DNA of 64,000 bases. It comes from Escherichia coli (GTDB taxonomy: Bacteria > Pseudomonadota > Gammaproteobacteria > Enterobacterales > Enterobacteriaceae). A program made the translations under genes and the position numbers. Position 1 is the first letter of the stretch. Each line of letters starts with the position of its first letter. The notes below the pieces were generated by a model. The model saw only the letters and a program-made list of their open reading frames with translations. It did no database searches and was not told the origin of the DNA. The DNA lies in assembly GCF_024223415.1 (NCBI RefSeq), contig NZ_CP100500.1; one strand, written 5' to 3'. This document shows positions 1 to 12,012 of the stretch, in pieces.

Positions 1-235
1 GACGACATCAGCCGCTCCCACAGCCAGCAACTGAGAGTAACGAATATAGCTGTTATCCCGAAGCCATATCAGCGTATCAATAAAATACCGGCACTTTTTC
101 TGATCGTGATCAACCTGGTCCGGGATATCGAAAAAACCAGAATAAATCAAAACCTGAGGAGCCGGATGCGTGTTCAGTAATCGGCAGAATATTTTGCCGG
201 TGAGTACATAAAAATCATCATTTAAGGAGTGCATC

Positions 236-451
236 ATGAATCCCCGATTAACGTTAACAGAACATCAGCGCCGTGCCGAAGCAGTGAACAATGTTCTGGA
301 AGATATTATCCGGTTACATCGCGGAGAACTGAGTGTCTGTCGTGCCACTGTTCATTTTCAGGAAATACAAAAGCAGTTTGATACTTCTGTTTTTGCAGAA
401 GGGATCACTTATGCCCTGGACCAGATAAGGTCAGAAAATCGCCCCGGATAA
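236..451 (+). CDS. hypothetical small protein (71 aa), prophage-associated
   Basis: ORF with AAGGAG Shine-Dalgarno just upstream of ATG; no recognisable motif; lies upstream of a phage-type Dam methylase. Confidence 0.4.
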   Translation: MNPRLTLTEHQRRAEAVNNVLEDIIRLHRGELSVCRATVHFQEIQKQFDTSVFAEGITYALDQIRSENRPG

Positions 452-643
452 TCCCTAAACCACATTAACAGAAATCACTTCATCCCTGCCGCATCATGAA
501 AGAACGACCAGCCCGGTGCTTCGGACCCACCAGGCTGGCCATCGTCCCACAGGAATGCGCTGTGAGCCGACCGGGGTTCAGTCAGTCTCGCGAGACCAGA
601 CTAGCCTGCCATATTTTTAATAATTGTAAAAGGCTTACAGATT

Positions 644-1408
644 ATGAAAATGCAGACATTACCCATCGTTCCATGGATTGGTGGCAAACGTCGCCTGGCA
701 AAACACATCCTGCCGCTGTTTCCGGCGCATGAATGTTACGTGGAGCCGTTCTGCGGCGCAGCAGCGCTCTATTTTCTTAAGACACCTGGTAAGCTCGAAG
801 TCATTAACGATATCAATGGTGAACTGGTAAATCTGTATCGGGTGGTAAAACATCATCTGGAAGAATTTGTCCGCCAGTTCAAATGGGCGCTGGTCAGCCG
901 GCAGATCTACAAATGGCTGCAGATCACCCCGACAGAAACACTGACGGATATCCAGCGTGCAGCACGGTTCTACTACCTCCAGAAGCAGGCGTTTGGCGGC
1001 AAGGTGGCAGAGCACAGCTTCGGCACCTCCACCACATCCCCGCCACGCTTCAACCTGCTGCGTATCGAGGAAGAACTGTCAGCGGCACACCTGCGGCTTT
1101 CCAGAACGGTGATAGAACACATGGACTGGCAACAGTGCATTGAGCGCTATGACCGTCCGCACACGCTGTTCTACTGTGACCCGCCGTATCTGGGTACAGA
1201 AGGCTATGGTGTGGATTTTCCTGAAGGGAACTACTCGCGGCTGGCAGAGCTGGCCCGGTGCATCAGAGGAAAGATGATAATTTCGGTGAACGACATCCCG
1301 CAGATGCGCGAGGTGTTCACTGGACTGAACATACAGACAGTGAACATCAACTACAGTCTGGCAGGCAAATCAACTCCACGCCGTGAGCTGGTGATCTGCA
1401 ATTTCTAA
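644..1408 (+). CDS. Dam-family (D12 class) N6-adenine DNA methyltransferase, orphan/phage type
   Basis: N-terminal WIGGK AdoMet-binding motif (PWIGGKRRL) and catalytic DPPY motif (YCDPPYLGTEGY); no adjacent nuclease partner. Confidence 0.85.
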   Translation: MKMQTLPIVPWIGGKRRLAKHILPLFPAHECYVEPFCGAAALYFLKTPGKLEVINDINGELVNLYRVVKHHLEEFVRQFKWALVSRQIYKWLQITPTETLTDIQRAARFYYLQKQAFGGKVAEHSFGTSTTSPPRFNLLRIEEELSAAHLRLSRTVIEHMDWQQCIERYDRPHTLFYCDPPYLGTEGYGVDFPEGNYSRLAELARCIRGKMIISVNDIPQMREVFTGLNIQTVNINYSLAGKSTPRRELVICNF

Positions 1409-1526
1409 AAGCCATAACCGGAAAGTACAGTGCTTTCCGGTAAGCCCGCCGATTTCTGCCATGCTACTGACGGCGTTTTCTGAAAGCATCCAGATCAACC
1501 ACCTGTCCTTTCTGTCCAGGTCAGAA

Positions 1527-1865
1527 TCAGCCTGCGAGTTTGCCTGGTTTGGGTTGAATGAAGACTTTGCCGACCTCAAGAATTGCCCTCCGTTGTTCGG
1601 GGCTCATCTCGTCGAATGCATCCATTAACTCTTTCTTTTCTTGTGACATATAAGGTGCAACAACAGGCTGACTCCGCACCCCAGTAACTACATACAAAAC
1701 ATCTACACCGATTTCTGATAGTGCAGATAACTGCACTGCAGTAGGAGAAGTGCGATCTTTTTCCCAATCAATAAAAGTTCTCTTTGCCACACCGATAGCA
1801 TCAGCCAACCCTTGCTGTGTAAGAGATAGACGCTCTCTTTCTTCTTTAATACGTAACCCGATCAT
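1527..1865 (-). CDS. XRE-family helix-turn-helix repressor (prophage repressor candidate)
   Basis: track ORF 1527..2018 trimmed to internal Met (MIGLRIKEERERLSLTQQGLADAIGV...); classic HTH pattern; divergent from the Ner-like gene. Confidence 0.65.
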   Translation of the reverse strand: MIGLRIKEERERLSLTQQGLADAIGVAKRTFIDWEKDRTSPTAVQLSALSEIGVDVLYVVTGVRSQPVVAPYMSQEKKELMDAFDEMSPEQRRAILEVGKVFIQPKPGKLAG

Positions 1866-1889
1866 GTGAGTTTTTCTGCACTCTTTAAG

Positions 1890-1918
1890 TTGACTGGTGA
1901 GATAATCTGCACCATAAT
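1890..1918 (+). promoter_or_regulatory. candidate sigma70 promoter for the Ner-like/early operon (TTGACT - 17 bp - CATAAT)
   Basis: -35 TTGACT and -10 CATAAT separated by 17 bp, about 45 bp upstream of the 1966 start codon; sequence-only prediction. Confidence 0.3.
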
Positions 1919-1965
1919 CTATCACACATAAGGCAAACATCATTGCATCAACAAAGGAGACAACG

Positions 1966-2154
1966 ATGACTGCAGAACAAGTCAAAGCTCTCTTCCGCCA
2001 GCGCGGGATCACTTTCACCCGCTGGGCAGAAGAAAACGGCTACAACCGCAATGAGGTATACCGCGTTCTCAATGGGCAGAGCAAAGCACGTTACGGTAAA
2101 TCCCATGAAATCGCCGTGAAACTGGGGCTGAAATCAACAGCTCAGGCAGCCTGA
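1966..2154 (+). CDS. ner: Ner-like (Ner/Nlp family) small DNA-binding protein
   Basis: 62 aa; length and HTH layout resemble phage Mu Ner (GITFTRWAEENGY...GKSHEIAVKLGL); divergent from repressor, upstream of transposase. Confidence 0.6.
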   Translation: MTAEQVKALFRQRGITFTRWAEENGYNRNEVYRVLNGQSKARYGKSHEIAVKLGLKSTAQAA

Positions 2155-2200
2155 ATATTTTGATTCTTTGTAAAAGGTTATCACATATCGCAAAAGAGGT

Positions 2201-2515
2201 ATGCAGATGAGTAAGACGAATGTTTCAAGCTCCGGCAGTCGCATCCTCCGGGTACTCAAAGCGCTGCGCGGTCATGCCCTGAACGGTATTTCCAATGGTG
2301 AACTGGCGGCAGCACTGCACGAGTCACCGGCAAACATCAACCGGGCACTCAACACCCTCATTGAAGAAGGACTGGCCCTGAAACTGGAAAACGGGCGTTT
2401 CGCACCGGGCATCCAGTTGCTGCAGATCGCCATGGCCCACAGTAACGAGATGGCACGTGCACAGGATCGCATTAACGAAATCAACCAACGTGTCATTTCA
2501 GGTAGTCGTTTGTAA
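2201..2515 (+). CDS. winged-helix (IclR N-terminal-like) DNA-binding protein, function unknown
   Basis: 104 aa; SRILRVLKAL...ISNGELAAAL...INRALNTLIEEGL pattern typical of a winged HTH. Confidence 0.45.
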   Translation: MQMSKTNVSSSGSRILRVLKALRGHALNGISNGELAAALHESPANINRALNTLIEEGLALKLENGRFAPGIQLLQIAMAHSNEMARAQDRINEINQRVISGSRL

Positions 2516-2525
2516 GGAGTAATCA

Positions 2526-3443
2526 ATGGGACGCACCAAATCACCGGTTAACACTGAACTGAACGCCGAGGTACCGCTGTCGGATGATCTCAACGTCAGC
2601 CTGAATGCCATGACACAGCATCGCATGGAGATCATGCAGCAGTTTGGTGATGGACTGCCTTATGAACGTGATCGCATCGTTCACGAAGCACGTTTTTATA
2701 TGGCGCAGAGTGCTGAATCTATGCTGGAAGCGGGTAAACGGCTGATCATCTTAAAAGAAAATGAGCCACACGGGGACTTTGTTGGAATTGTAGAAGAACA
2801 ACTTGGTTTGCACGTGCGCGCAGCACAACGAATGATGAAAGCATCTTTGAAATACCTTTCACCAAAACTAGAGCCAAAAGCGACAACGTTGTCGCTTTTG
2901 GGTAAGGCAAAATTATTTGAACTTGTTGCTGAAGACGATGAAGACCTTGCCGAACTGGCCGACGGCGGCACAGTTGCCGGCCTGACGCTTGATGATGTTG
3001 ATCGCATGTCAGTACGTGAACTTCGCCAGGCCCTGCGTGAAGCGCGCGAAACTAACGCAGCTCAGCAACAGGTGCTTGCCGGAAAGGACGAAAAAATCAA
3101 CGAACTGGCCACAAAACTGGAGAAGAAATCCCGTATTCAACCGCCTGAGCCTGATGAAGAGGTGAAGAAGCTGCGGGCGGAAGTGACCGCATTAGCGGTT
3201 GAGGCGGAATCTGCCATCGCCGTCCGGCTCTCCGGTGCCTTTGAAACCCTGTGTGAATACTGCAGTAAAAACATGATTGATACCCCCAGAGATTTCATGG
3301 CCGGTCTGGTCTGCCAGATTGAACGCAGTGTTCATGCATTGCGTGAGACGTTCGACCTTGATGCCGCACCATCGGGTAACGATGCCCCCGCCTGGCTGAC
3401 CGAACCGGAGCCTGAAATCAACCGACCGGAGGGCATGCAGTAA
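2526..3443 (+). CDS. hypothetical protein (305 aa), acidic and coiled-coil rich
   Basis: good RBS (AAGGAG) upstream; no catalytic motif recognised; sits between Ner-like gene and transposase. Confidence 0.45.
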   Translation: MGRTKSPVNTELNAEVPLSDDLNVSLNAMTQHRMEIMQQFGDGLPYERDRIVHEARFYMAQSAESMLEAGKRLIILKENEPHGDFVGIVEEQLGLHVRAAQRMMKASLKYLSPKLEPKATTLSLLGKAKLFELVAEDDEDLAELADGGTVAGLTLDDVDRMSVRELRQALREARETNAAQQQVLAGKDEKINELATKLEKKSRIQPPEPDEEVKKLRAEVTALAVEAESAIAVRLSGAFETLCEYCSKNMIDTPRDFMAGLVCQIERSVHALRETFDLDAAPSGNDAPAWLTEPEPEINRPEGMQ

Positions 3444-3760
3444 TGAACACGGATAACACACAAAATATCCTGATGGACAGCCCGGAAGCACTGGGGCACG
3501 CACTGTGTAATCTGCTGCCGGAGATGGTGCAGGGTTTCCGCGTGGTGACACCTTCCGGTGAAATCTGCGTACCCGCACAGGAGGCGCATCCGTTTGTACT
3601 GACGATGGAAGTGATGCTGATGCAGCAGATAAGACGTCTGCAGCATCAGTCAGCATTGCGCCCGGCAGTTGCGCCGCAACCGGTAAATAACGTGGTGAAA
3701 ACCTGCGATGGCGAAACACTGTACGACCTCGCCAGAAAAATTGCCGCCAGAATCGGATAA
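3443..3760 (+). CDS. hypothetical protein (105 aa)
   Basis: start overlaps upstream stop (ATGA-type coupling); no motif recognised. Confidence 0.35.
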   Translation: MNTDNTQNILMDSPEALGHALCNLLPEMVQGFRVVTPSGEICVPAQEAHPFVLTMEVMLMQQIRRLQHQSALRPAVAPQPVNNVVKTCDGETLYDLARKIAARIG

Positions 3761-3775
3761 CAGGGAAGACAAGCT

Positions 3776-5545
3776 ATGACCCCGGCACTGACTGAAAAAC
3801 TTGTTGAAACAGCCCGCGCGGCACGTAATGCAGGGCATGGTAAACGCGGTGCAATATACGACGCTGCCTGTGCTGAACTTGGCATGTCCCGCGCCACTCT
3901 GCTGCGCAGGCTGAAGGAGGTCTCTGTGACTGATAAACGCAAAAAACGCGCCGATGCCGGACGCAGCACCCTGACCCGCGACGAAGCCGCGCTGATATCT
4001 GCCACACTACGTGAGGCCACCCGCAAGAACGGTAAGCGTCTCTATTCCATCGCGGATGCAGTGGAAACCCTGCGGGCTAACGGCTTTATCTCCGCAGGCA
4101 GAACAGATGAAACCACCGGTGAGTTTTTCCCGTTGTCCGAAGATGCCATCAGTCGTGCCCTGCGTAACTATGGCCTGCACCCGGAACAACTGGATGCCCC
4201 TGCACCGCATACCGAAGTGGCCAGTCTGCACCCCAATCATGTCTGGCAGATTGACGCCTCACTCTGCACGCTTTACTACCTGAGCAATGGACATAAAGGG
4301 CTGCAGGTGATGGACAGCGCGAAATTCTACAAGAACAAGCCCGCTAACCTTGCCCGTATCGCCAGTGACCGCGTGTGGAGTTACGAGATTACCGACCATG
4401 CCAGCGGCTGGATTTACGTTGAGTATGTGACGGGTGCGGAATCCGGTGAGAACCTGTGTTCTGTGCTTATCAACGCCATGCAGGAGCGTGGCGGCGCAGA
4501 CGTGCTGCACGGCGTGCCAAAAATACTCTATCTCGACCCCGGCTCGGCAAACACCGCGGGTATGACGAAAAACATGTGCCGCTCACTGGGCATCGACCTG
4601 ATAGCGCACAAGCCGCATAACGCCCGCGCCACCGGACAGGTGGAAAAGGCGCGTGACATTATCGAACGCAAGCTGGAGCCGGGTCTGAAGTTCCGGCCGG
4701 TTCACAGTCTGGAAGAACTCAACGCGCTGGCCGCGAAATGGCGCAGCCACTTTAACGCCACGGCTGTTCACAGCCGCCACGGTAAAACCCGCACGGATAT
4801 CTGGCTGAAGATTACTGCTGAGCAGCTGAAAAAAGCGCCTTCCGTTGAGGTATGTCGTGAACTGGCTGTGGCGGCACCAGAACTCCGCAAAGTCACGCCA
4901 AAACTTCGTGTCTCGTTCCGGGGCACTGAATTTGACGTATCAACGGTACCGGGCGTACTGGTCGGTGAAAAACTGATGATTACCCGTAACCCGTGGCGCA
5001 GCGATGTGGCACAGGTGGTTCTGACCGGTGAGGACGGCCACGAGACGTTCTTCCTGGTCGAAGAGGTCAGAAAGAACGAGTTTGGCTTTGCTGAAGGCGC
5101 GGCGGTATTTGGCGAAAGTTACAAAGCCCTGCCGGAAACCCCGGCGCAGATGGCGGCAAAAGAAACCGAAGCGCTGGTCACCGGTACAGACAACGCCGCA
5201 GATGCAGCTGCCGCACGCAAGGCGAAGGCGCTGCCGTTCGGCGGGCGGCTTGACCCGTATAAACATATTGATGACGCCACACTTCCGGCCTGTATACCGA
5301 AGCGTGGTCAGGCCTCTGACGTACGCGGACCGCGCACTGAACAGCGTCCCATGACTCATGTGGAGGCCGCGAAAGCCCTGCGCGGGAAGTTTAGCGCAAA
5401 CGGCCTGACCTGGACGCCGGAACATTACCGCCAGTTAACGGCACAGTACCCGGACGGCGTACCGGAAGCCGCACTGGATGAAGTCATGGCCACGCTGACC
5501 ACGCCGGCCCGCAGCAGCGTTATCAGCATTGTTAACGGCAACTGA
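3776..5545 (+). CDS. Mu-like DDE transposase (MuA-type, integrase catalytic core)
   Basis: 589 aa; N-terminal HTH region, central rve-like core (HVWQIDAS...), immediately followed by an AAA+ B-like gene as in transposable phages. Confidence 0.85.
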   Translation: MTPALTEKLVETARAARNAGHGKRGAIYDAACAELGMSRATLLRRLKEVSVTDKRKKRADAGRSTLTRDEAALISATLREATRKNGKRLYSIADAVETLRANGFISAGRTDETTGEFFPLSEDAISRALRNYGLHPEQLDAPAPHTEVASLHPNHVWQIDASLCTLYYLSNGHKGLQVMDSAKFYKNKPANLARIASDRVWSYEITDHASGWIYVEYVTGAESGENLCSVLINAMQERGGADVLHGVPKILYLDPGSANTAGMTKNMCRSLGIDLIAHKPHNARATGQVEKARDIIERKLEPGLKFRPVHSLEELNALAAKWRSHFNATAVHSRHGKTRTDIWLKITAEQLKKAPSVEVCRELAVAAPELRKVTPKLRVSFRGTEFDVSTVPGVLVGEKLMITRNPWRSDVAQVVLTGEDGHETFFLVEEVRKNEFGFAEGAAVFGESYKALPETPAQMAAKETEALVTGTDNAADAAAARKAKALPFGGRLDPYKHIDDATLPACIPKRGQASDVRGPRTEQRPMTHVEAAKALRGKFSANGLTWTPEHYRQLTAQYPDGVPEAALDEVMATLTTPARSSVISIVNGN

Positions 5546-5555
5546 GGAGGGAAAC

Positions 5556-6722
5556 ATGCTGGTACTGAAGCAGCAACTGAAAGAGGCCCGTATTCCACAG
5601 GCGGTGGCGGCGAGAGCTGTCGATGTTTCTGAGGCCACGCTGGCCCAGATTGTGAATCATAACGCGTGGCCCCGCACCAGCCCCGGAGAAGTGCGCCGGC
5701 GTCTTGCGTCCTGGCTGGAAAGTCAGGGGATTGATACAACGAAGAGTTTTGATGCTGTACAGGGCGCGGCCACGCCCCGTACAGCGAGTACCACAGATAA
5801 AACGAGCCTCAGTGAGGAAGAGAATATGTTACTCAAAAAACAGGTGTTATTTCCAGCAACCAAAAAAGCGTTTGGTCTTTTCCGTGACCCGTTCGCCGAC
5901 GAAGCCATGCAGGGTTCTGATGATGTGTTCACCACCCCGGACATTCGCTACGTGCGTGAGGCGCTGTACCAGACAGCCCGTCATGGTGGGTTTATGGCCG
6001 TCATCGGTGAGTCCGGTGCGGGTAAATCCACGCTGCGCCGCGACCTGACTGAACGTATTAACCGCGAGAATGCGCCGGTAATTGTTATCGAGCCATACAT
6101 CATTGCCATGGAAGACAACGATGTGAAAGGGAAAACCCTGAAGGCTGCAGCGATTGCCGAAGCCATTATCAGTACCATCGCACCACTGGAAAGCATCAGA
6201 CGCAGTCAGGACGCCCGCTTTCGCCAGTTGCATCGCGTCCTGAAAGGCAGCAGCCAGGCGGGGTTCAGCCACGTTCTGGTGATTGAGGAGGCCCACAGTC
6301 TGCCCATTCCGACACTGAAACACCTCAAACGCTTTTTTGAGCTGGAGTCCGGTTTCAAAAAACTGCTGTCCATCGTGCTGATTGGCCAGCCGGAACTGGC
6401 GACAAAACTGTCTGAACGCAATATGGAAGTCCGTGAAGTCGTTCAGCGCTGTGAGGTGGTCGAACTTCTGCCTCTGGACAATAACCTTGAAGAATTTCTG
6501 ACGTTCAAACTGCAACGGGCCGGTAAACAACTGACGGACATTATGGACGCCAGCGCAGTGGATGCCATACGTGCCCGCCTGAGCAATCCGGGAAGTCATC
6601 GTAAAAATATGGTCAGCCTGCTGTATCCGCTGGCCGTCAGTAACCTGGTAATAGCCGCCATGAATCTGGCCGCTGAAATCGGGGTTCCACAGGTCAACGC
6701 TGACGTTGTCAAAGGAGTTTAA
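5556..6722 (+). CDS. MuB-like AAA+ ATPase (transposition target-DNA activator)
   Basis: Walker A GESGAGKST, Walker B-like VLVIEEAH, N-terminal HTH; start set at ATG 5556 with GAGGAGG RBS (track ORF begins 5529). Confidence 0.8.
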   Translation: MLVLKQQLKEARIPQAVAARAVDVSEATLAQIVNHNAWPRTSPGEVRRRLASWLESQGIDTTKSFDAVQGAATPRTASTTDKTSLSEEENMLLKKQVLFPATKKAFGLFRDPFADEAMQGSDDVFTTPDIRYVREALYQTARHGGFMAVIGESGAGKSTLRRDLTERINRENAPVIVIEPYIIAMEDNDVKGKTLKAAAIAEAIISTIAPLESIRRSQDARFRQLHRVLKGSSQAGFSHVLVIEEAHSLPIPTLKHLKRFFELESGFKKLLSIVLIGQPELATKLSERNMEVREVVQRCEVVELLPLDNNLEEFLTFKLQRAGKQLTDIMDASAVDAIRARLSNPGSHRKNMVSLLYPLAVSNLVIAAMNLAAEIGVPQVNADVVKGV

Positions 6723-6724
6723 TA

Positions 6725-6994
6725 ATGAAATCCACCACAGGTATCAACCAGCAAATCAGCAAAGTGCAGTCAGCCATTATGGCGCTTAAGGCGACGAACA
6801 CGGATGTACAAAGCATCACCATCAGGGGTAACAAACCTGTCATCCGCGTTTCCCGGAGTGCGCATTGCATGCGCATGCTTGAGCAGGGAAAGGCCTGTTA
6901 TCTGTATACCGGACATGACCACAGGGGATATTTCCGTCAGGGCGTTTTCGAACTGCACGGCTGTCGCGTCGTGTGGCCGGAATCTTTGTGGTAA
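6725..6994 (+). CDS. hypothetical early-region protein (89 aa)
   Basis: AAGGAG RBS; no motif recognised. Confidence 0.45.
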   Translation: MKSTTGINQQISKVQSAIMALKATNTDVQSITIRGNKPVIRVSRSAHCMRMLEQGKACYLYTGHDHRGYFRQGVFELHGCRVVWPESLW

Positions 6995-7021
6995 TCAGCA
7001 CAACCGGAGAAATCATAAAAT

Positions 7022-7552
7022 ATGGCAAAAAGTACAAAAGGGGCAAAACGTATCAAGGCCGCAGCGGCACTCTGGGTACCAGGGACACGCGAAGAGGTCA
7101 TTGAGGGAATCAGACTACTCGGTGACGCACAACGTGAACTGGTCAGGGCTGAAACAGAAATGAATGACGCCATTGGCGATATCACCGCACGTTATGCCCC
7201 GCTCACCGAGAGCCTGAAAAAACGCATGGCCGAACTGCAGTCCGGTATTCAGACATGGTGTGAGGCACACCGTGATGAACTGACCGGCAACGGGAAGGTG
7301 AAGTTCGCTAACCTCACCACCGGCGAGGTGCAGTGGCGAAACCGTCCGCCATCAGTCAGTATCCGTGGGGCGGATAATGTTATTGAATTACTGAGACGTC
7401 TGGGGCTTGAGCGCTTTATTCGTGTAAAAGAGGAAATAAATAAAGACGCTATCCTGAATGAAAAAGAGGCCGTGAAAAATATTCCCGGTATTTCCATTAA
7501 AAGCGACATTGAGGATTTTTCAATAATTCCTTTTGAGCAGGATGTGCAGTAA
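7022..7552 (+). CDS. gam: Gam-like host-nuclease inhibitor (Mu Gam family, DNA-end binding)
   Basis: 176 aa; closely resembles phage Mu Gam along its whole length as recalled (N-terminal KRIK..AAA, central ETEMND, C-terminal EDFSIIPFEQ). Confidence 0.85.
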   Translation: MAKSTKGAKRIKAAAALWVPGTREEVIEGIRLLGDAQRELVRAETEMNDAIGDITARYAPLTESLKKRMAELQSGIQTWCEAHRDELTGNGKVKFANLTTGEVQWRNRPPSVSIRGADNVIELLRRLGLERFIRVKEEINKDAILNEKEAVKNIPGISIKSDIEDFSIIPFEQDVQ

Positions 7553-7649
7553 ACACACCACGTTAATTATTTAATAAAAACATTTTCTTTTTTATTCCGG
7601 CGTCAGCGCCGCGGGCTTCTGCACGCCGGAAACAGAGGAGAATTAAATC

Positions 7650-7844
7650 ATGATATTTAAATGTATTCAGTGCGAGAGGGATATAACAGCCCTGCGTTTT
7701 CACAGCGCCATCGCCGTGATGTCCGGTAAATACCACATCCCTGCGGTACGCGTCACCCTGGTCTGTCCGTACTGCAGCCAGCATTTTTCGGCAGACGTGC
7801 CCGTCATGGAATTCTCCCGCCCTGACAGGGAGGACGCGCAATGA
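7650..7844 (+). CDS. small zinc-ribbon protein (two CxxC pairs)
   Basis: CIQC ... CPYC; GAGGAG RBS. Confidence 0.45.
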   Translation: MIFKCIQCERDITALRFHSAIAVMSGKYHIPAVRVTLVCPYCSQHFSADVPVMEFSRPDREDAQ

Positions 7845-8113
7845 TTACCCCACAGGAAGCACGACAGCGCACCCGAACCCTTGTTGAACACTATGTCAAC
7901 GAGTGTGAATGTCGCGACCTCACCGATGTGAAGCACGTCCTGACGGCGCTAATCAGCATGGCCACACAGGCCATTGTGGCAACCAACGGAAAGGCGGCTG
8001 CCCTGCAGGTACTGATGAACACACTCACCCACACGGCAGAGCATGAGGTGCCGTACCGGATGGAAACCACTGCAGAAGGCGGCCTGCACATCACCGTCAG
8101 CCGGAAGCACTGA
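7841..8113 (+). CDS. hypothetical protein (90 aa)
   Basis: start overlaps upstream stop (ATGA); no motif recognised. Confidence 0.4.
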   Translation: MITPQEARQRTRTLVEHYVNECECRDLTDVKHVLTALISMATQAIVATNGKAAALQVLMNTLTHTAEHEVPYRMETTAEGGLHITVSRKH

Positions 8114-8122
8114 GGGTGCGGC

Positions 8123-8419
8123 ATGACACGAAACACCGAACTCACCCGCACCGCCCTCTACCGTCTGGCCCTGCAGCGTTTCGGGCCGGATGCACAGGCC
8201 CTGAAACTGACAGAAGAGGCCGCTGAACTGGCGGCCAGTGCTGCCCGCAACCTGAACGGACAGGGCAGCGAAAGTGACCTCGCGGCAGAGCTGGCAGACG
8301 TGGAAATCATGACAGAGCAACTGCGCCTTCAGGGGATGGACCGGCTGATTGACTTCCACAAACAGAAAAAACTGGAACGTCTGGCTGCACGACTGGGCGT
8401 GATTTACACGAACGAGTAA
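8123..8419 (+). CDS. MazG-like nucleotide pyrophosphohydrolase candidate (all-alpha NTP-PPase fold)
   Basis: 98 aa; EExxE ... ExxD acidic motif pair (EEAAELAAS ... AAELADVEIMTEQL) at MazG-like spacing. Confidence 0.5.
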   Translation: MTRNTELTRTALYRLALQRFGPDAQALKLTEEAAELAASAARNLNGQGSESDLAAELADVEIMTEQLRLQGMDRLIDFHKQKKLERLAARLGVIYTNE

Positions 8420-8433
8420 CCGGGAGGCATTCA

Positions 8434-8556
8434 ATGGCTGACATACTCAGGGAAATCACCGCATGGACACTGATTCTTACTGGTCTGGCGACATGCCTCA
8501 GTGCGGGAGCAGCCCTGGCTGCCCTGCTGATGCACATAACAACACAGTGGTTATGA
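8434..8556 (+). CDS. small hydrophobic peptide (40 aa, one predicted TM helix)
   Basis: not in supplied track (<60 aa); GGGAGG RBS about 7 nt upstream of ATG; hand-counted coordinates. Confidence 0.3.
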   Translation: MADILREITAWTLILTGLATCLSAGAALAALLMHITTQWL

Positions 8557-8645
8557 GAAAAGCTTAAAGCAGCATACAGCCTGAAAGAGCTGTCCGACGC
8601 TGTCCGGGCATGGAAACGGCAGAAAAATACCGGAGATACAGAACA

Positions 8646-9329
8646 ATGACAGACCAGAATAAACACATTGAGAAACTGAAAAAGTTGCTGGCGCTGGCCG
8701 CATCCGGCAACCCGCATGAGGCTGCTCTGGCACTGCGCCGCGCCCGTAAACTGATGGATGTTCACGGCATCACACATTCCGACATCGCCATGAGTGATAT
8801 TGATGAAACCATCAGTCACTACTGGCCGACAGGCAGCCTCCGTCCGCCGCGCTACATGCCAGGGCTGATGAACATCATCCGCGAGGCATTTGGTGTTAAC
8901 TCCATCATTCACCCCGGCACATATCCGGGTGTGGGGTTCTACGGCAAACGGGAACGGGCCGCACTGGCCGCGTACACCTGGGAAGTGCTGGCCCGTCAGC
9001 TGAAAAAGGCGCGTCAGCAGTATATCAGTGCACAGAACAAAAGAATAAAAACCGCCACCCGCACCAGCCGTGGAGACCAGTTTGCTGAAGGCTGGGTGCT
9101 GGCCGTTATCAGTGAAATACAGTCCTTCGCCCTGACCAATGACGAACGTGAACTGATGCAGCAGTGGCTGGAACATAAATACCCGCAGACGCAAACCACC
9201 AGGGCGCGTAAACCGGGAAGAAGTCGCAATGGCGACGCCTCGCGCTATGCGGGGTTTCGAGAAGGGCAGAACGTCAGACTGCACCGACCGGTCAGTGGGC
9301 GGGAACAGCAGAAACTGGAGGCCAGATGA
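8646..9329 (+). CDS. DUF2786-like phage protein
   Basis: track ORF 8610..9329 trimmed to Met with GGAGA RBS; N-terminal KLLALAASGNPHEAALALRRARKLM motif typical of this family. Confidence 0.5.
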   Translation: MTDQNKHIEKLKKLLALAASGNPHEAALALRRARKLMDVHGITHSDIAMSDIDETISHYWPTGSLRPPRYMPGLMNIIREAFGVNSIIHPGTYPGVGFYGKRERAALAAYTWEVLARQLKKARQQYISAQNKRIKTATRTSRGDQFAEGWVLAVISEIQSFALTNDERELMQQWLEHKYPQTQTTRARKPGRSRNGDASRYAGFREGQNVRLHRPVSGREQQKLEAR

Positions 9330-9556
9330 TGACGTTATCAGGTAACAGCCGGAAATTAAAAGCCTGCCGAATATCTGCCAGATACCTTTTTGCCCGCGCC
9401 TTTTTTAAGAACGTCAGGCCGGGGATCACAATTGGTGTTATTGCCGGACGCGAACAGGTTGAAAAATACATGTCAGGTGCATGGTGGAATAAAGACCCTG
9501 TCATTGCTGCCCGTAATATTCATATCAGTTGGGGAGATATTCAGAATGACTGCTGA
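9326..9556 (+). CDS. hypothetical protein (76 aa)
   Basis: GGAGG RBS; overlaps neighbours head-to-tail. Confidence 0.35.
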   Translation: MMTLSGNSRKLKACRISARYLFARAFFKNVRPGITIGVIAGREQVEKYMSGAWWNKDPVIAARNIHISWGDIQNDC

Positions 9557-9761
9557 ATCTGTTGTATGTGCCCTGTTCTGGTATTGTTTTGTCGGTTGGT
9601 GTACTGCTGAACTGCACCGCCGTTCAGGGTTTTATTCACGTTACAGTGGTGCCGGTTACTGGATTAGCTGGTCGGTGATGTTCCTGTGCTGGCCTGTGGC
9701 ATTTCCTTTATATGTCGATTATATCGGTGATGCAGGCAGAAGGAGCAACGATGATGACTAA
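9546..9761 (+). CDS. small Trp/Cys-rich membrane protein (71 aa)
   Basis: track ORF 9390..9761 trimmed to ATG 9546; hydrophobic. Confidence 0.35.
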   Translation: MTAESVVCALFWYCFVGWCTAELHRRSGFYSRYSGAGYWISWSVMFLCWPVAFPLYVDYIGDAGRRSNDDD

Positions 9762-10203
9762 ACAACGTCTTATCCAGCTTATCCATATTGCCCGTAATGA
9801 ACTGGGTATGGATGAAGACACCTACCGCCAGATGTTACAGGGGCTGACCGGTAAAGCCTCAACCAAAGGAATGGATACCACACAACTAAACTGCGTGCTG
9901 GAATCCATGAAAAGGAAAGGCTTTCGCGTTAAGCCTGCCGGAAAAGCCAGCTCCGGTTTACCGCTGGATAACCATCCGCAGTCCAGGAAAATCCGTGCGC
10001 TATGGCTTGAAATGGCTGCTGCCGGCATTGTTCGTGACCGTTCAGAAAATGCATTAGCGCGGTGGATCAAGCGGGAAACGGGCATCAGCGCCCTGCGCTG
10101 GCTCAATACTGAACAGGCAAGCAGTGTTATTGAGAAACTGAAGAAGTGGCAGCACAGAGCTGCGGGAGTAAAACATGAGCGACCTGAATCAGTTTCGAAG
10201 TAA
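9751..10203 (+). CDS. gemA: GemA-like protein (Mu GemA family)
   Basis: N-terminal KQRLIQLIHIARNELGMDEDTYRQML pattern; positioned directly upstream of mor as in Mu. Confidence 0.75.
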   Translation: MMTKQRLIQLIHIARNELGMDEDTYRQMLQGLTGKASTKGMDTTQLNCVLESMKRKGFRVKPAGKASSGLPLDNHPQSRKIRALWLEMAAAGIVRDRSENALARWIKRETGISALRWLNTEQASSVIEKLKKWQHRAAGVKHERPESVSK

Positions 10204-10573
10204 AGGGCCGGAACTCCTGGTGGAGCTGGCACAGCATACCTCTGAGACCGTTCGCGAGATTATTGATATTGAGCCCGCAATTGCCGACCAGATTGGTCAG
10301 GCCGTCGCGAACCGAATGATGCAGGTCTGGGGCGGGCAAAACGTTTATTTCCCGATGGGCATGGTATGGAAGGTCAGTCAGCGCGACCGGGAAATCTTCA
10401 GGGAGTTTAACGGACGCAACCACCACGAACTGGCCCGCAAGTTTGGTGTTTCGCTTCAGTGGGTCTACAGCGTGGTTAAGCGGGTCAGAAAAGAAGAACT
10501 GGATCGGATGCAGGGCAGGTTGTTTGATGAAGATCTGCCAGAGGAGACGAAAGACGTTAACAAATCCAGATAA
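10175..10573 (+). CDS. mor: Mor-family transcriptional activator (Mu middle operon regulator)
   Basis: 132 aa; C-terminal HTH REIFREFNGRNHHELARKFGVSLQWVYSVVKR typical of Mor/C family. Confidence 0.85.
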   Translation: MSDLNQFRSKGPELLVELAQHTSETVREIIDIEPAIADQIGQAVANRMMQVWGGQNVYFPMGMVWKVSQRDREIFREFNGRNHHELARKFGVSLQWVYSVVKRVRKEELDRMQGRLFDEDLPEETKDVNKSR

Positions 10574-10618
10574 TTCCTGCTTGTTAAAGTCCTTTCAAAA
10601 ATCTCCTTATTGTATAAA

Positions 10619-10649
10619 AGCACGGTAGACCCCGTACCGTGCTTTTTTT
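10619..10649 (+). terminator. rho-independent terminator downstream of mor
   Basis: GC-rich hairpin AGCACGGTA...TACCGTGCT followed by a run of 7 T. Confidence 0.5.
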
Positions 10650-10687
10650 ATGCTCTCTCTTTAGTATTCAGGATGCAGGGAGAAAAT

Positions 10688-11320
10688 ATGTTTGACGTTT
10701 CGTTGTTAAATCTGCCATGGGCAACACTGGTGACCCTGACCAGTGGCTATATTGGGTATTTTATTGCGAATGTGGGACTGAAGGATCACCACAAGCCCAT
10801 TGAGGTGACTTTTTCTTCGCTGATTTTTGGCCTGACAGCAATGATGGCTTACCAGGCTGTTATGTGGGCAGGTCTGAATGCCTGGCTGGCAACACCACCA
10901 GCACTTCTGTGTGCCGTTACATGCGGTGCGTGGTGGCGCAGGTACGGTCGCAAATGGATGTACAGATTACTGTGGAATAATGATATTTCATGGTCTGACG
11001 ATACCAGCTCAGCATGGCAGGCAATGTTTGATCAAACAGGCTTCAGCGTTACCGAGGTCAGAGTGATTCTTCGCGATGGTTCCGGTATGATGTCACGGCT
11101 GCCAGGGAACTTTGAACAGTGGCCTAACGGTCCGTTTACCCTGGGGAATAAAGGCGATATGGTTCTTTACGTCACGCACAGCAGCCCTTCAGGCAGTAAC
11201 GAATGGGAAGAGTATAAAGGCGTGGTTGATAAGTACTGGGGAGCTCTGGCAACCTATATTCCAGCAGATCAGATTGCCAGAGTGGAGATCAGGCGCGTTC
11301 GTGCAACGAACGATGAATGA
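10688..11320 (+). CDS. membrane protein (210 aa), N-terminal TM helices plus soluble C-terminal domain
   Basis: track ORF 10610..11320 trimmed to ATG 10688 (GGGAGAA RBS) because the upstream part overlaps the mor terminator. Confidence 0.5.
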   Translation: MFDVSLLNLPWATLVTLTSGYIGYFIANVGLKDHHKPIEVTFSSLIFGLTAMMAYQAVMWAGLNAWLATPPALLCAVTCGAWWRRYGRKWMYRLLWNNDISWSDDTSSAWQAMFDQTGFSVTEVRVILRDGSGMMSRLPGNFEQWPNGPFTLGNKGDMVLYVTHSSPSGSNEWEEYKGVVDKYWGALATYIPADQIARVEIRRVRATNDE

Positions 11321-11670
11321 TGTTTATTTTTTCCCTGGGGCAGGGGCTGCCGGCATAGTGGTTTTATTGGCAGAGGAAGACGATTCTCCTTTTCTACCGG
11401 AATCGCGCTCGAACGTCACGATGTGCTTGCTTTTGGGATTTTCTGAGTAATCCAGGCTATCATGCTTATTGTTTTGAGTAGTCATTGGAATCATCCTTTT
11501 TGTTGCGGGTCATGTTTCAGCAAACTCGATTCTAAGTTGCCAGGAAGGATGATTTCAATGCCCGACTTATCTATCGTATAGCGGAAAAGAATTTCAGTTC
11601 TGTTCACCAGAACCCATGTTAACCCACTCCAATTCGTTATTTATCTCACGGATCCCCCTTCATTTATCTC

Positions 11671-12012
11671 ATGTCTGATCAGGTGCGTAAGCTCTCTGGC
11701 GGCAACCAGCAGAAAGTTATCCTCGCGCGCTGCATGGCGCTCAATCCACGGGTGTTGATTGTCGATGAGCCGACGCGTGGCATCGACGTTGGAACCAAAT
11801 CGGAAGTGCACCAGGTGTTGTTTGATATGGCGAAAAAGGGCGTGGCGGTGATCGTGATCTCCTCCGATCTGCTTGAAGTGATGGCGGTGTCTGACCGGAT
11901 CATCACCCTTAGTGAAGGCCGGTTAACTGGCGAGATCCACGGTGACGACGCTAACGAAGAACGGCTGATGACGATGATGGCTATCAACCACAACGCCCTG
12001 AACGCGGCATAA
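11671..12012 (+). pseudogene. 5'-truncated sugar ABC transporter ATP-binding protein (C-terminal ~113 aa only)
   Basis: LSGGNQQK signature, Walker B LIVDEPTRGIDV; the N-terminal ~390 aa expected for a RbsA-like two-domain ATPase are missing. Confidence 0.8.

Follow-up and report, generated by a model that had tools for sequence, protein, structure and literature searches.

The window analysed here, a 64,000-nt stretch of an Escherichia coli genome, is 99.9% identical to E. coli Ec1117 and begins within a prophage, with the late genes further to the left. The early arm of this prophage takes up window positions 1-11,500, and the remainder of the window (nrdAB, yfaL, gyrA, rcsC and others) is E. 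coli chromosome. The part of the early arm that surrounds the interval of interest contains the following features:

644-1408, plus strand: Dam-type methylase
1417-1441, minus strand: terminator-like hairpin with a T-run (9-bp stem with 5 GC pairs, then TATGGCTTTT)
1527-1865, minus strand: immunity repressor of the XRE type, 112 aa, with an N-terminal XRE/Cro-C1 helix-turn-helix (HTH) and a short C-terminal domain
1966-2154, plus strand: first early gene, a 62-aa HTH protein of the BcepMu gp16 family in the Ner/Cro position
2201-2515, plus strand: IclR-like HTH protein
2526-3443, plus strand: DUF3102 protein
3776-5545, plus strand: DDE transposase (rve domain, E=9.8e-9)
5529-6722, plus strand: AAA+ B-like ATPase (AAA_22, E=5e-20)

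Beyond the ATPase gene, the annotation of Ec1117 continues the early operon through Gam to Mor at ~10,570 of the window, and places the host gene inaA at ~11,790; by comparison with Ec1117 the right end of the prophage falls between the gene after Mor and inaA, at ~10,690-11,790. Leftward past the window start, the RefSeq annotation of Ec1117 lists a holin, an SLT-domain transglycosylase and head morphogenesis and head genes. With a transposase and a transposition ATPase downstream, Mor at the end of the early arm and the lysis and head genes on the opposite side, the element has the organisation of a BcepMu/B3-like transposable prophage, and its nearest phage record is the Escherichia phage PhiKM, which is classified in Bcepmuvirus. 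The gene order on either side sets the interval at 1866-1965 where the late and early arms meet, an arrangement also found in BcepMu and KS10 (PMC2628397). We consider this interval to be the immunity and early control region of the prophage, with a probability of roughly 80%; in functional terms, these 100 bp very probably switch a Mu-style transposable E. coli prophage on and off. The preliminary description of this DNA had proposed a divergent control region of 100 bp here, between a repressor and a Ner-like gene. The interval is exactly the gap between the repressor ATG (complement 1863-1865) and the ATG at 1966, both in the open reading frames and in the RefSeq annotation of Ec1117, and the comparisons below support the view that the immunity repressor and the first early gene share a divergent control region here. 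The hairpin at 1417-1441 lies 3' of the repressor gene, just past the convergent dam gene; transcription of the repressor probably ends there, and the hairpin may work bidirectionally. Searching Rfam with positions 1300-2600 revealed no structured RNA, the sole match being a meaningless miRNA (E=0.57).

The two proteins encoded on either side of the gap are both HTH proteins of distinct kinds. The repressor matches Pfam HTH_3 over residues 6-51 (E=1.6e-7), its reading frame is annotated identically by RefSeq in Ec1117, and its HTH has sequence matches in the PDB to the HTH domains of P22 c2 and the 434 repressor; a domain search found no S24 peptidase domain in it. Its last ~40 residues (S.EKQ.L.D.FD.M.P.QRR..LE.G....QPKPGK.AG) are common to several immunity classes. 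This C-terminal segment, encoded at 1527-1649, has no Pfam family match and may be a dimerisation or induction-sensing module; in most heteroimmune classes it is 55-82% identical to that of the window, L004, L016 and L068 being the exceptions. For the first early gene, the preliminary term 'Ner-like' fits by position and fails by family. HTH_35 (PF13693) scores 17.8 bits against a cut-off of 25, and the gp16 family model TIGR04111 scores 98 bits against a cut-off of 34, with a further match of the 62-aa protein to PHROG 925 (E=4e-33). Neither the protein nor an 18-sequence profile has a significant match in the PDB, Ner being absent from the hits up to E=10, and Ner is equally absent from the 50 best Foldseek matches of the gp16 model. 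This AlphaFold model (pLDDT 85, four helices) weakly resembles the 434 repressor, 434 Cro, HigA and SinR (TM 0.55-0.61, E>0.1). Both the region of helix 3, the putative recognition helix, and the C-terminal half are invariant in 18 diverse sequences. By its position at the head of the early operon, divergent from the repressor, and its weakly matched lambda-repressor-like HTH fold, gp16 may have a Cro/Ner-like role; Ner of Mu turns down both Pe and Pc.

Within the gap and at its edges we located the following elements, those of the early promoter being referred to as Pe:

~1650-1913: exchangeable immunity cassette, ~265 bp (repressor codons 1-72, which encode the HTH domain, then OL, the -35 hexamer and OR)
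1865-1882: predicted operator OL, core GTGAGTTTTTCTGCAC at 1866-1881, abutting the repressor start codon
1890-1895, plus strand: -35 hexamer of Pe, TTGACT; a TTG-containing hexamer lies at the same position in other classes, within differing flanks
1896-1913: predicted operator OR, GGTGAGATAATCTGCACC, core GTGAGATAATCTGCAC at 1897-1912, filling the entire spacer between the Pe hexamers
1913-1918, plus strand: -10 hexamer of Pe, CATAAT; nAnnAT is nearly invariant in 19 classes
1916-1924, minus strand: candidate repressor promoter TGaTAGATT, an extended -10 that overlaps the -10 of Pe and is without a -35
1924-1926, plus strand: predicted start of the early operon, 6-8 nt past the -10 in the usual sigma-70 geometry
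1938-1950: leader block CATCATTGCATCA (consensus ATnnTTGCATCA, 1939-1950), closely followed by the Shine-Dalgarno sequence
1955-1959, plus strand: Shine-Dalgarno AGGAG, kept in relatives, at 6 nt from the ATG of the first early gene

The promoter TTGACT-17-CATAAT that had been pointed out as reading toward ner is present, and it is kept at a fixed place across most of ~20 immunity classes. Its hexamers match the sigma-70 consensus at 10 of 12 positions across a 17-nt spacer, a geometry likewise kept in most classes, and it is the sole sigma-70-like match in 1300-2600. Scored with a weight matrix that is approximate, Pe reaches 12.7 bits, the highest value on both strands of 1840-2800, where the best independent site scores 7.9. 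Shuffled sequences yield 1.4 consensus matches like Pe per 1.3 kb, so that one match alone is at chance level, and the case for Pe being real therefore rests on its conservation across loci. The -10 begins 53 nt 5' of the ATG, or 73 nt in those distant relatives where the gene has a 20-nt N-terminal extension, and the early operon would start near 1925. Our search of the literature returned no 5'-end mapping or start-site study of this element or of E. coli family members. In this allele alone, the centre of OR gives rise to an extended -10-like TGaGATAAT on the plus strand (1898-1906), 12 bp upstream of the Pe -10; the other class-A variants are without it, and a second plus-strand promoter at this place is probably incidental.

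In order to place the locus among its relatives, we compared 85 related loci (five annotated relatives and 80 IMG/VR loci that encode the 62-aa protein) together with phage B3. Clustering of the repressors by blastp defined ~20 classes, and the upstream regions amounted to 61 distinct 140-mers. The region is matched in 622 of 5426 complete E. coli genomes, with 96 matching across the repressor and carrying this immunity type. In the classes with a placeable promoter, the -35 contains TTG, the -10 reads nAnnAT and both occupy the same positions, while each class has its own spacer sequence, often palindromic or pseudo-palindromic. Three other classes read as follows (-35, spacer, -10):

JJ1887 (class B): TTGATA, TGCTCATAATTATGAGC, AATAAT
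CE10 (class C): TTGACA, ATGAGAACAATAGTTCT, CATAAT
NRZ14408 (class D): TTGCTT, TATACACATTTGTGTA, TATAAT

In the window, the spacer sequence is one of two related sites. The direct repeat formed by GTGAGTTTTTCTGCAC and GTGAGATAATCTGCAC matches at 13 of 16 positions, a level reached by 5 of 1000 shuffles, and OL sits 31 bp upstream of OR. Their shared motif, GTGAG-N5-CTGCAC, has exactly two occurrences in the 64-kb window, both here, and no further site appears anywhere in the window even when one mismatch is allowed. Judged from these sequence features, the two copies of GTGAG-N5-CTGCAC, each spanning 16-18 bp, are likely to be the operators. Variation within the immunity type of the window (class A, 10 relatives) follows the same outline. 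No variation affects the -35, the -10 or the OR half-sites (GTGAG and TCTGCAC), and OR varies at its four central bases (ATAA, GTAA, GAAA, GTTT, TTTT). The OL half-sites are equally invariant in the 10 relatives, with variation at one central base and in the segment between the sites, where a 1-nt indel sets the spacing to 30 or 31. A second site is also the rule outside class A: the best upstream match to the spacer site is 29-34 bp away in 19 of 22 class representatives (binomial P ~1e-17 with the representatives taken as independent, ~1e-11 counting ~16 independent classes), and a second copy at this distance is absent in the three representatives of F, M and O. Symmetry is a less uniform property. 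The OR of the window pairs at 5 of 10 ungapped positions in a strict palindrome test (P=0.76), its symmetry requiring a 1-nt offset (GGTG/CACC outer, AGAT/ATCT inner), whereas the test is significant for many other classes. Because the window OR fails this test, we relied on the repeat and on covariation instead. No operator, binding or footprint study of E. coli BcepMu-like prophages was found in the literature. On the minus strand, the first gp16 codons (1968-1984) also contain an inverted, incomplete version of the operator, TGACTTGTTCTGCAGTC, which is 82% complementary to OL; class B prophages have identical codons despite their unrelated repressor, so that this sequence was rejected as a third operator and is probably coincidental.

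The covariation between operators and proteins indicates which part of the immunity region reads them. Between classes, the repressor N-terminal domain is 24-44% identical and gp16 74-98%. OR retains 5-8 of 18 positions when the HTH is 24-32% identical, with gp16 staying at 75-98%. Two relatives separate the protein domains particularly well:

L002 against the window: gp16 98% identical, repressor N-terminal domain 24%, OR 6/18
L057 against the window: gp16 89% identical, repressor N-terminal domain 83%, OR 15/18, with an unrelated C-terminal domain

On the strength of this covariation, exemplified by L002 and L057, we conclude that the operators track the repressor HTH domain and neither gp16 nor the repressor C-terminal domain. 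L057, a class-A relative, thus joins the same HTH domain to an unrelated C-terminus. The boundaries of the exchanged DNA could be read from blastn alignments of the window with three heteroimmune loci (L002, L005 and L073), in which homology extends from position 1 to 1636-1649, resumes from 1911-1914, and is unalignable between. Since homology breaks and resumes at these positions, the exchanged unit comprises repressor codons 1-72, OL, the -35 and OR, and its right junction is the -10 hexamer itself. What the relatives share is the -10, the leader, gp16 and often the repressor C-terminal domain.

We conclude that Pe is the early promoter, and propose a mechanism in which it, as a strong sigma-70 promoter, would drive an operon running from gp16 through the genes for the IclR-like protein, the DUF3102 protein, the transposase, the B-like ATPase and Gam to Mor. 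The divergently encoded 112-aa XRE-type repressor would bind the pseudo-palindromic OR together with OL. With OR occupied, RNA polymerase would most likely have no access to Pe. OL, which lies on the same face of the DNA three helical turns farther upstream and touches the repressor start codon, would probably be a helper that allows cooperative contact between repressors. The same occupancy of OR would probably also limit repressor synthesis, and the specificity of immunity would reside in the ~265-bp cassette exchanged among relatives.

Other assignments of the repeats were weighed against this model. An earlier proposal placed the operators in a partial inverted repeat bracketing the promoter, CATGTGAG (1863-1870) and TCACACAT (1922-1929). 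Both strings are present in the sequence, and the left one overlaps the GTGAG half-site of OL, so that part of the true site had been spotted; in register, however, the two arms are complementary at 0 of 8 positions, and the pair goes undetected in a repeat search seeded with 6 nt. Exact inverted repeats reach at most 5 nt (ATGTG/CACAT), a length attained in 950 of 1000 dinucleotide shuffles. Moreover, conservation of the right arm does not follow the repressor: CTAnCACAyATAA is kept in prophages that have unrelated repressors (24-31% identical) and are without the left arm. We regard operators of this kind as very unlikely. Slightly less so, though still improbable, is a reading in which it is not the repressor that binds the GTGAG-N5-CTGCAC repeats but gp16, or else the transposase, to which they would serve as a Mu-style operator/enhancer. 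Small proteins of the Cro/Ner type often share the operators of the repressor, and the Mu operator region doubles as a transposition enhancer (PMC3820752); a secondary use of the repeats as an enhancer is possible. Yet gp16 is 74-98% identical across the classes, with an invariant putative recognition region, and the repeats differ entirely from one repressor HTH to another; ~20 unrelated sequences are beyond what one constant protein can read. That promoter and repeats might both have arisen by chance in an AT-rich gap, without any part in regulation, receives some encouragement from the shuffles, which give one consensus promoter match per 1.3 kb, but we give it almost no credence: the position and geometry of Pe are kept over ~20 classes with unalignable surroundings, no other spot in 64 kb has the motif, and the spacing of the second site has a P of ~1e-11 or lower.

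How the repressor gene itself is transcribed is the less firmly supported half of the switch. Neither a weight-matrix scan nor a census of positions across classes revealed a convincing promoter or Shine-Dalgarno sequence before the repressor ATG, and for this reason the autoregulatory part of our model is weak. The candidate TGaTAGATT has the best minus-strand score in 1840-2800 (7.9 bits) and occurs in the close classes A-H and not in the distant classes I-R. Hexamers from the AT-rich centre of OR were rejected as a repressor promoter, not being conserved within class A, and so was a leaderless start at the repressor ATG, which is without a plausible -10. A further candidate is the leader block, which keeps a constant distance to the -10, is invariant or nearly so across alignment columns 27-38 in 19 classes, and is also found in B3. 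No conserved RNA structure was predicted for it (RNAalifold, 18 leaders, -0.24 kcal/mol), and the window holds no other close copy. Read on the minus strand, it contains an extended -10, TGcAATGAT (TGcAAnnAT), with the invariant columns falling on the TG, -11A, -8A and -7T, making it a candidate minus-strand promoter that would face Pe, the two starts lying ~7 bp past each other. At the same time the leader block is the best candidate for a gp16 site, because gp16 is constant and would have to read constant DNA. A distal promoter, by analogy with the Pseudomonas phage Fc02, would be the third candidate for the repressor.

These candidates allow the switch to be pictured as promoter interference instead of simple occlusion, with a weak class-independent repressor promoter (at 1916-1924 or 1939-1947) overlapping or facing Pe, and the repressor mainly relieving the competition that Pe exerts on its own synthesis. 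Such a mechanism would extend the occlusion model and not replace it, and we hold it as a tentative option. It accords with the best minus-strand candidate in 1 kb overlapping the Pe -10, with the promoter-like placement of the invariant columns in the TGcAAnnAT of the leader block, and with the overlap of pC2 and pE in Fc02 and B3 (PMC9936078); promoters that share a -10 are, moreover, common in E. coli, with polymerase bound in one orientation at a time (PMC10268837, PMC12825309). On the other hand, neither candidate has a -35, the leader block could equally be a protein-binding site, and TGaTAGATT is not kept in the distant classes I-R. A mirrored -10 is in part automatic at any near-consensus -10 (PMC10268837), and the one seen here may be just such a by-product. 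We also put forward, as a speculative generalisation that we think somewhat doubtful, that a plug-in specificity cassette of ~265 bp sits on a shared chassis in ~20 or more immunity types, and that the shared block is the repressor promoter, the gp16 operator or both. The cassette junctions would then lie exactly at the -10 hexamer on one side and at the domain boundary inside the repressor gene on the other, and the chassis would consist of the -10, the leader block ATnnTTGCATCA, gp16 and the common repressor C-terminal domain, with the shared block facing or overlapping Pe. If true, every immunity type would share one interference-based counter-switch, and the gp16 of any member could act on heteroimmune relatives.

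Returning to the switch as modelled, with the repressor occupying OL and OR, we find that it resembles those of Mu and lambda in outline, is a member of neither, and belongs with the B3 and BcepMu group. Its closest counterpart is in B3 and Fc02 (Pseudomonas, Beetrevirus), where the first early gene is homologous, with 70-76% nucleotide identity over ~140-150 nt. The Pe region is a homologue of pE in B3, where the layout is shared (TTGACA, GGTGCAATATTTGGCAC, CACTAT), a second, related site is found 33 bp farther upstream and the leader block again precedes the Shine-Dalgarno sequence. The gap is short in both systems (106 bp in Fc02, 100 bp here), and both have a divergent HTH repressor of the P22 c2 type. 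Strand-specific RNA-seq of Fc02 showed that pE transcripts begin at ner once a temperature-sensitive repressor is heat-inactivated, that pC2 overlaps pE in the 106-bp gap, and that the lysogenic repressor mRNA arises from a distal promoter, pC1, antisense to ner (PMC9936078). We found no operator description for the B3-like Fc02 in that work (PMC9936078). The prophage studied here differs from B3/Fc02 in its E. coli host, its Bcepmuvirus-like virion module and its operator sequence, and the gene after ner encodes an IclR-like HTH protein here and ORF16 in B3. BcepMu and KS10 have the same divergent pair (gp17 as the repressor, and gp16), followed by transposase and transposition ATPase, with the lysis and structural genes on the opposite side (PMC2628397). 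Compared with these two, the repressor alleles here are diverse, with ~20 classes in E. coli; the literature searched contained no promoter or operator analysis of BcepMu or KS10.

As in Mu, the element is a transposable phage in which the repressor gene diverges from an early operon of a small HTH regulator followed by transposase and B, and the repressor is predicted to act at operators that overlap Pe. Unlike that of Mu, the repressor matches XRE HTH_3 only and no Mu-type, MuA-related DNA-binding domain, the switch lies in mid-genome and not 1 kb from the end, and the operators are two short sites 31 bp apart. The Mu operators O1-O3 are spread over ~200 bp, with an IHF site between O1 and O2; we found no IHF consensus WATCAANNNNTTR near the region. 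The likeness to lambdoid immunity (lambda, 434, P22) consists in operators that overlap the early promoter and in a repressor HTH resembling those of P22 c2 and 434. Lambdoid heteroimmune relatives likewise differ by a swapped repressor-operator cassette with shared flanks. Unlike lambda CI, the repressor lacks an S24 domain for RecA-stimulated autocleavage and has two sites instead of three, with OR inside the promoter spacer; and unlike its lambdoid equivalents, the cassette cuts the repressor between its domains, ends at the -10 and leaves the gene in the Cro position outside. This is an ordinary phage lysis-lysogeny switch, to which our analysis adds a precise operator pair and a clean view of immunity exchange as modular.

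Related prophages are common in E. coli, including the clinical lineages JJ1887 and CE10. Promoter and class-specific operators together could be used for sequence typing of immunity groups and for predicting exclusion or tolerance between prophages, and they constitute a ready set of orthogonal repressor-operator pairs on one promoter scaffold. The concept is standard, and the value of the locus lies in annotation and in a natural example of modular specificity exchange. Five of the IMG/VR loci (L046, L048, L052, L055 and L074) carry a close homologue of the 62-aa protein that is 72-82% identical. In these loci neither a divergent HTH repressor nor, upstream, a promoter of the Pe type with its operators could be recognised, and the gene may therefore be regulated in another context there. 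No counterpart of the distal pC1/olg1-olg2 unit of Fc02 was identified here. Between the gp16 and IclR-like genes, the 46-bp AT-rich gap at 2155-2200 contains weak promoter-like matches on both strands (~6 bits) and could harbour a distal promoter reading leftward, in analogy to pC1 of Fc02.
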